DNA of 7,332 nt, taken from IMG/VR virus record IMGVR_UViG_2706794686_000014; one strand, written 5' to 3'. A program made the position numbers and the translations under genes. The notes beneath the pieces were generated by a model that had not been told where the DNA came from, did no database searches, and saw nothing but the letters and a program-made list of their open reading frames with translations. The stretch's first letter is position 1; every line of letters starts with the position of its first letter. Shown here piece after piece: positions 6,515 to 6,728 of this stretch. The stretch is from a virus (lineage: Duplodnaviria; Heunggongvirae; Uroviricota; Caudoviricetes).

Positions 6515-6570
6515 TCAAAGGCTTGGTTAAAAATGATTAAAATACACTAAGCCTTTGAAATCAAAGGAGA
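6515..6570 (+). promoter_or_regulatory. Candidate translational control element: alternative hairpins that expose or sequester the SD of the downstream gene
   Basis: TCAAAGGCTT 6515-6524 pairs with AAGCCTTTGA 6549-6558 (10 bp). Alternatively CCTTTGA 6552-6558 pairs with TCAAAGG 6561-6567, which overlaps the SD AAAGGAGA at 6563-6570. Confidence 0.35.
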
Positions 6571-6575
6571 ATTTA

Positions 6576-6728
6576 ATGATTTACACTAATCAGCTTCGTT
6601 ACAGTGGCAAAGATGGCATCTATTTCCACTTAAGAGACAATGTAGATGCCTTCTTAACCTTATCAGCAACTGAAAACATGGAATTTGATAGCCCTATGCA
6701 GGTGACTACACAGAACATGCAATTATGA
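6576..6728 (+). CDS. 5' segment (51 codons) of a tail-module gene; probably the N-terminal part of one gene continued in the +1 frame
   Basis: SD AAAGGAGA at 6563-6570, 5 nt before ATG 6576; hand-translated as [50 protein letters not shown]; stop TGA 6726-6728. Confidence 0.45.

Follow-up and report, generated by a model that had tools for sequence, protein, structure and literature searches.

The 76-nt leader module preceding the tube-initiator gene in this DNA contains a hairpin, here called helix 1, that on its own keeps the Shine-Dalgarno (SD) sequence of that gene open and shows no sign of switching; as RNA structures go, it is a fairly ordinary one. The window, by which we mean the whole 7,332-nt stretch that was analysed, is part of a chromosomal island of Escherichia coli and Shigella, not of a phage, and resembles a phage satellite. 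We tentatively favor, at somewhat less than an even chance, the reading that the module is a constitutive leader hairpin which keeps the ribosome-binding site (RBS) of the tube-initiator gene open and insulated and which may add RNA stability. The features on which the argument draws are these:

4239–6419, plus strand: tape measure protein gene, 726 aa, from the list of open reading frames, with its TGA stop at 6417–6419.
6420–6575, plus strand: spacer of 156 nt from tape measure gene to tube-initiator gene, lying between TGA and ATG.
6432–6499, plus strand: hairpin-A cassette, present in every island variant examined.
6500–6575, plus strand: 76-nt leader module with helix 1, helix 2 and the SD; optional, as judged by comparison of islands.
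6515–6527, plus strand: 5' arm of helix 1 (the 'anti-sequester'), TCAAAGGCTTGGT, from sequence and folding.
6533–6550, plus strand: mini-ORF of five codons (ATG ATT AAA ATA CAC TAA) within the helix 1 loop and 3' arm.
6546–6558, plus strand: 3' arm of helix 1, ACTAAGCCTTTGA, from sequence and folding; it includes the shared CCTTTGA at 6552–6558.
6562–6567, plus strand: 3' arm of helix 2, CAAAGG, which by folding pairs with 6552–6557 and overlaps the SD.
6564–6569, plus strand: SD sequence AAGGAG, 6 nt before the ATG, from sequence.
6576–6728, plus strand: 5' fragment (50 codons) of the tube-initiator (Dit-like) gene, a homologue of Felix O1 ORF68.
6724–7269, plus strand: remainder of the tube-initiator gene, in a frame different from that of its start, from alignment.

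Related islands of ~10–14 kb lie in E. coli chromosomes, one of them between yciI and tonB and others adjoining yecD/aspS, and ~7–9% of complete E. coli genomes carry an island with tape measure and tube-initiator genes. Their shared order begins with a replication initiator, small unknown genes, a ~236-aa protein and a ~69-aa protein and ends with the tape measure gene, the spacer, the tube-initiator gene and a convergent large serine recombinase; in the related islands, further tail genes beyond the tape measure and tube initiator were not found. Four relatives (L038, L102, L103 and L151) are flanked by host genes and carry the large serine recombinase. The tape measure ORF matches Pfam TMP_3 (PF20155, E 2e-21) and phrog_4036 (E 4e-93), and the replication initiators of the islands match phrog_428 and phrog_8102, alongside the TMP_3 and Dit_like domains; the initiator of the window matched nothing in any phage record. 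Being integrated, encoding a recombinase and an initiator, and holding a partial set of virion genes related to those of phages, the island is satellite-like. An earlier, preliminary description of this DNA spoke of tail components, but the locus is not a phage tail operon, and the downstream gene is broken in the window. Two runs of N, 254 nt at 559–812 and 221 nt at 3226–3446, leave gaps in the replication-initiator gene and in the window's counterpart of the ~236-aa protein ahead of the tape measure module.

The putative E. coli satellites described by Barth et al. 2023 (PMC10055350) are similar to the island in gene content (initiator, tape measure, baseplate gene, recombinase), and the two have in common a size of ~10–14 kb, a chromosomal location and an incomplete set of tail genes. 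Those satellites are reported to carry capsid genes, and the phage associated with them, Muut, is a Justusliebigvirus, whereas the tail genes here match Felixounavirus DNA; the paper does not mention the spacer. We do not assign the island to that family, to which it may nonetheless belong: the presumed helpers differ and the initiator matches no phage.

Judged by gene order, the gene downstream of the spacer corresponds to gp18 of the Felixounavirus Bas63, the next gene after the tape measure gene, which encodes the hexameric tube initiator (PMC12609058), and its intact homologue in the relative L003 matches Pfam Dit_like (PF21821, E 2.5e-20). The preliminary description had proposed a riboregulator that could set the stoichiometry of tail components, but the rationale for this is weak, given that Bas63 contains 3 to 6 copies of the tape measure protein and 6 of the tube initiator (PMC12609058). 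Moreover, the window carries a 74-bp deletion at 6723|6724 relative to Felix O1, garuso and 50 other island copies, seen in one of 51 loci. It shifts the frame and brings in a premature stop at 6726–6728, so that the tube-initiator gene is a pseudogene in the window, and with the downstream gene broken the question of its regulation is moot there. Similarity to the other islands stops at 7269. The last ~70 nt (about 7260–7332) contain repeated TGGCAT..GAATCGATC motifs and match a multicopy element, which 957 E. coli genomes carry at as many as 35 places each, both chromosomal and plasmid-borne, and which sometimes adjoins transposase genes. In all probability the window thus closes, at ~7260–7332, with one end of an insertion sequence by which the tube-initiator gene is truncated.

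There are signs of exchange with phages in the same gene. Positions 6600–7035 are ~92–93% identical to many Felixounavirus genomes, a hint that DNA has been exchanged with phages of this kind not long ago; the remaining sequence of the window is far more distant, and the adjoining tape measure gene has patchy matches to a single phage. Across the islands we found three alternative 5' ends of the tube-initiator gene, one of which has CAAATCAAATATAGTGGCAAAGA in common with Felix O1. Together, the identity over 6600–7035 and the 5'-end alleles suggest ongoing recombination with the presumed helper phages.

What separates the islands from the phages at this locus is the spacer. Felix O1, garuso and the phage loci L115, L135, L137 and L145 are without one, the tape measure stop overlapping the next ATG, whereas a spacer of 95, 156, 173 or 234 nt is present in every island examined. 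It is built of three parts: an optional segment of ~80 nt, the constant hairpin-A cassette and the optional 76-nt module. The ~80-nt segment lies directly 3' of the tape measure stop and holds a 17-codon hydrophobic ORF (MLELLIFIATHGNLLIFI); it is at 5889–5975 in L102 and 8886–8970 in L151 and is also found in L112 and L122. The arms of hairpin A, CTACGTGAA (6432–6440) and TTCACGTAG (6476–6484), enclose a 35-nt loop and are followed by a conserved CTCACGCTTAACAGA. This cassette of ~70 nt (CTACGTGA, 35 nt, TCACGTAG, CTCACGCTTAACAGAG) is duplicated in many islands, the second copy lying upstream of the tape measure gene, just 3' of an intrinsic terminator; relatives with two copies are L004 (about 1750–1830), L015, L058, L066, L077, L080, L089 and L093. 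The stems of the cassette are conserved, and its loop has at least five divergent alleles, all with a TAnnnT hexamer. As to function, the cassette may serve as a promoter, as an operator or at the RNA level. A promoter in the hairpin-A loop is a putative candidate only: one allele, that of L005 (TGAACA-18-TAGAAT), scores 9/12, which is at the chance rate, and the window allele was not flagged.

The window is without the upstream hairpin-A copy, and 4141–4238 keeps only the terminator and the SD. The intrinsic terminator (4166–4201 plus a T-run) stands upstream of the tape measure gene, whose SD follows ~25 nt later, and expression of the tape measure gene would consequently need read-through. 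The native tape measure leader, CACTTAAAGAGG, is similar to the cassette at the latter's right end, CGCTTAACAGAGG. At its other end the tape measure gene (6415–6424) reads AATGATTTAA, with an ATG overlapping the TGA stop and then ATT TAA. This ATG may be a vestige of an ancestral stop/start overlap of the kind seen in the phages; the overlap is present at some junction types only. A 9-bp repeat, AATGATTTA, at 6415–6423 and at 6575–6583 (the true start region) flanks the spacer. Insertion with target-site duplication was rejected, since this repeat is missing at most other types of junction between tape measure gene and spacer.

Searches for the spacer outside the islands returned little. A BLAST search of 50,697 phage records gave short, chance-level hits only, the Felix O1 genome contains motifs of the spacer no more often than chance would give, and a helper-phage promoter or packaging motif was accordingly rejected. 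A literature search for sequence strings from the spacer turned up no paper with them, and Rfam gave no match in the spacer at E values up to 10.

Within the islands, in contrast, the 76-nt module is widespread. At 90% identity or more it is present in 367 of 5426 complete E. coli genomes, at 393 places by a BLAST-based count, and it also occurs in Shigella flexneri, E. albertii and gut-metagenome contigs. The avian pathogenic strain APEC O18 has the very spacer of the window, letter for letter, and O157:H7 Rafaela_II is another carrier of the module. All 393 places carry it at full length and directly before a gene annotated as 'phage baseplate protein', which does not fit a dispersed repeat or mobile element of the REP or MITE kind. 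It is nonetheless optional: module-less sister islands (L102, L103, L112 and L122) have instead 15 nt, ATAGGAATAACAACA, joined to the cassette and to the ATG, and the resulting ATAGGAATAACAACA-ATG RBS folds open. The module is thus not essential.

The mechanism that we tentatively favor would follow from this layout. In the related phages the tube initiator would be translated through the stop/start overlap with the tape measure gene; the island spacer would break this coupling, and the tube-initiator gene would then need an RBS of its own. In one sub-family of islands the 76-nt module would provide it, in the form of a strong AAGGAG, a 6-nt gap and a 13-bp hairpin just upstream. Helix 1 would tie up CCUUUGA, the sole nearby sequence able to pair with the SD, leaving the RBS permanently open and insulated from its surroundings, and might in addition impede RNA decay. 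Helix 2 would be a latent by-product of the three copies of TCAAAGG, arranged direct-inverted-direct, and would matter only in RNA lacking 6515–6527. Transcription of the region as a leader, formation of helix 1 in vivo and a benefit to translation or RNA stability are inferences; the helices and their energies, their conservation, their distribution over genomes and the dispensability of the module in sister islands are shown.

The preliminary description had seen in the same sequence a riboregulator with an anti-sequester and a sequester hairpin, and its layout largely holds. Positions 6515–6524 (TCAAAGGCTT) are the exact reverse complement of 6549–6558 (AAGCCTTTGA), as it had noted for a 10-bp helix, and the pairing extends to 13 bp (6515–6527/6546–6558), with one G-U pair and an 18-nt AU-rich loop. 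For the second helix, the complementarity that it had reported between CCTTTGA (6552–6558) and TCAAAGG (6561–6567) is exact, but the arms lie 2 nt apart, which is sterically impossible in RNA, so that at most 6 bp with a 4-nt loop can form; this realistic helix 2 pairs 6552–6557 with 6562–6567. The two helices do compete for the CCTTTGA segment and are mutually exclusive, and helix 2 alone covers the SD, pairing its AAGG when the 5' arm of helix 1 is absent. The start codon is the ATG at 6576–6578; position 6578, at which the preliminary description ended its range, is the G of this codon.

A working switch did not emerge from this layout. Helix 1 is predicted at -15.9 to -16.7 kcal/mol and helix 2 at -5.2 to -6.5 kcal/mol, a gap of ~10 kcal/mol; at roughly -16 against -6 kcal/mol the two states are not predicted to be both populated, and the pair probability of helix 2 is ~1e-4 in transcripts containing the 5' arm of helix 1. 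Helix 1 dominates the minimum free energy and centroid folds, with pair probabilities of 0.83–1.0, and the polymerase finishes it before reaching the 3' arm of helix 2. In predicted transcripts from 6420 or 6480 the SD is unpaired with a probability of 0.65–0.9, and in a 400-nt read-through transcript with one of 0.5–0.7. Masking of the SD depends, in these predictions, on where the RNA begins: transcripts that start at 6480 or farther 5' do not contain helix 2, which forms in one class of transcript only, namely those from 6528 or 6549, where it reaches a probability of ~0.99 and buries the AAGG of the SD.

It is this last class that a regulated toggle of the kind first proposed would exploit. 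If the 5' arm at 6515–6527 were removed or masked, CCUUUGA would pair with the SD and the tube-initiator gene would be off; the candidate causes are a transcription start inside the helix 1 loop, an endonuclease cut in that AU-rich loop, or a protein or RNA of the helper phage or the island. We regard such a toggle as improbable. The energy gap and the order of transcription both favor helix 1, and a search for the remaining parts of a regulated system came up empty. In its favor, the triple heptamer on which the toggle would be built is conserved and not random: TCAAAGG has three copies within 53 nt and five in the window against 1.09 expected, a number reached in 0 of 200 shuffles. The two remaining copies lie within the tape measure gene. 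A consensus scan of 6200–6800 on both strands, with phage-specific promoter types outside its scope, detected no sigma-70-like promoter, and hence no second one there that could yield transcripts without one helix arm. The same interval has no intrinsic terminator (AAAUCAAAGG follows helix 1), the island has no antisense or repeat partner beyond one AT-rich 13-mer, and no leader ORF that might serve as a sensor is conserved across the variants. A TAAAAT hexamer in the loop (6538–6543), nearly invariant, might as a putative -10 element give rise to the short transcripts that the toggle would require, but an extra A disrupts it in three variants. The region also has no match in the phage records and no Rfam family, and the relatives that do without the module have no comparable logic.

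The mini-ORF in the loop fares no better as a regulatory part. Its ATG is lost in L013, L043 and L059, and leader-peptide attenuation through it was rejected on account of these losses and because its SD lies inside helix 1; the losses weigh against the toggle as well. A likeness of ATATCAAAGGCTTGGTT to invertase crossover sites, noticed by eye, was also dismissed, the orientation of the loop being identical in every variant seen.

In the proposed check by folding and covariation, helix 1 is stable and conserved with one compensatory pair, and covariation in helix 2 is nil. Among 35 unique sequences, with a mean identity of 97% and low statistical power, neither helix has a double change, and the covariation measures for the helices equal those of shuffled controls. 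Several variants nevertheless keep the pairs of helix 1: C6552T, found in 13 of 36 unique sequences, C6522T and A6546G are all compatible with G-U pairing, and G6525A turns a G-U into an A-U. In L148, G6521A together with C6552T converts a G-C into an A-U via the common G-U intermediate, which constitutes the one compensatory pair for helix 1. Other, rare variants (C6522A, G6520A, T6554C, T6555C and T6527C/A) break the stem without compensation. The types of change in helix 1 thus lean, as far as the aligned variants go, toward RNA pairing. Helix 2 has no covarying pair: in L148 its partner 6567 remains G, and G6566A in L022 (Shigella) breaks it without compensation, a further point against the toggle.

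A different view of the same conserved stretch is that the three TCAAAGG copies are DNA sites for a regulator of the island or the helper phage, among them a 16-bp palindrome, CCTTTGA-AA-TCAAAGG, over the RBS, and that the RNA helices are incidental. A 7+7 palindrome with a 2-bp gap, which cannot close as an RNA hairpin, has a spacing that suits a dimeric DNA-binding protein, and both the over-representation of the heptamer and the conservation of the whole module in sequence, loop included, would fit such a role. Yet C6552T, in 13 of the 36 unique variants, breaks the DNA symmetry while keeping the RNA pair as G-U; the plus strand of the module folds better than the minus strand (z = -4.8 against -2.9, with z = -3.15 for the intergenic region as a whole); a promoter for an operator to control was not detected; and the heptamer is absent from the other intergenic regions of the window. 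A DNA-level element is in our judgment distinctly improbable.

How far the module is under constraint bears on the constitutive leader and on its chief rival. Over 5 kb in 29 aligned islands, nucleotide diversity is 0.02–0.05 in the 100 nt before the ATG and 0.1–0.45 elsewhere, and the 76-nt module is the least variable stretch; much of this sample was gathered with exact-match anchors in or beside the module, a bias of which the 367-genome BLAST count is free. Within the module the RBS segment 6559–6575 is the quietest part, with two variable sites in 17. The stems are no quieter than their surroundings, with 0.31–0.54 minor alleles per site compared with 0.44 in the loop and 0.54 in the upstream single strand. 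Between the most closely related islands, divergence of the module runs at ~0.4–0.6 of the synonymous third-position rate, which indicates mild constraint only, and module distance does not rise with gene distance in close pairs. Much of the diversity of the flanks is probably due to recombination with alleles of phages, a source closed to the spacer.

These observations can also be read as those of a near-neutral relic: a decayed duplication of the RBS and start that arose once in the island lineage, whose apparent conservation would reflect its youth, its spread by recombination among islands and its having no phage counterpart, while the flanking genes keep importing divergent phage alleles. 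Indeed, an alignment of the module's first half to the true RBS and start shows the same elements in the same order (ATCAAAGG, AATGATT, TACACTAA), with a score of 25 against 14.7 +/- 3.0 in shuffles, 38 of 5000 of which do as well. This alignment suggests that the initiation region was duplicated in tandem and has since decayed, an inverted heptamer lying between the two halves, and the mini-ORF at 6533–6550 has the look of a degenerate copy of the true gene start. The even spread of variation over stems, loop and single strand, the closest-pair divergence and the flat module distance (as expected if gene diversity is due to recombination), the Felixounavirus identity of 6600–7035 next to a tape measure gene that lacks it, and the mix of optional cassettes that makes up the spacer, with sister islands lacking the module, are all in keeping with a relic. 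They have to be set against three others: the island-specific other part of the spacer has many divergent alleles, so noncoding DNA of this kind can diversify; the frequent stem variants keep pairing, and the one double change is compensatory; and the module remains at least 90% identical beside tape measure genes with just 37% protein identity. On balance we hold the relic to be rather unlikely, if a reading to be taken seriously.

The constitutive leader, for its part, is supported by the energetics, the plus-strand folding bias, the G-U variants, the quiet RBS, the low diversity before the ATG, the spacer that islands have and phages lack, and the single, full-length locus, and is weakened by stems that are no more conserved than the loop, by the uncompensated breaks, by covariation equal to that of shuffles, by sister islands that do without the module, by the mildness of the constraint and by the anchor-based sampling.

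Comparison with known systems places the module near several of them. In the phage T4 genes e (lysozyme), soc and I-TevI a short hairpin can mask the SD depending on the 5' sequences of the transcript, and in the module too the 5' sequence would decide whether an SD-burying hairpin forms. In T4, however, it is the long early transcript that is masked, the SD being freed when transcription begins at late promoters within the hairpin; in the module the long transcript leaves the SD open, masking would be confined to a hypothetical short one, and no internal promoter was found. Alternative helices are likewise shared with lambda cIII and ermC-type attenuation, where of two mutually exclusive helices one exposes and the other hides the SD. 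In systems of that type the states are near in energy or are driven by RNase III or by a ribosome stalled on a conserved leader peptide, whereas the module has its gap of ~10 kcal/mol and a mini-ORF that is not conserved. Phage Mu mom, where the protein Com acts on an upstream hairpin to determine access to the RBS, resembles it in being a phage late gene type with a stem-loop beside the RBS; mom is closed by default and opened by Com, while the module is open by default and is not known to have a binding protein. With ompA-type 5' hairpins and REP-type 3' barriers, which stabilize mRNA segments, the module shares a stable intercistronic hairpin without a U-tract. The 5' stabilizers sit at the very 5' end of their RNA, and REP elements are GC-rich and dispersed, in contrast to the module, which has an AT-rich sequence and sits at a single locus.

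If helix 1 works as we propose, it would be another structured leader that holds an RBS open, which would not be surprising; it would aid the annotation of these islands and might perhaps furnish a compact, portable RBS cassette. A more consequential role, which we consider very improbable, would be that of a gate sensing the helper, in which infection by a Felix O1-like phage leads to removal or masking of the 5' arm, be it through a factor of the phage or the island, through cleavage of the AU-rich loop or through a transcription start within it, and so closes the SD. Such a gate would limit or time production of the protein that nucleates the tail and would tune the balance between hijacking the tail and interfering with it. 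The context is more interesting than the hairpin. The tape measure and tube-initiator genes of the islands appear still to exchange DNA with virulent Felix O1-like phages, and it is exactly the cassette-built spacer between these genes that sets the islands apart from the phages. If the spacer is the site at which the island controls expression of its tail initiator, it would offer a route into how such islands exploit or block a helper.
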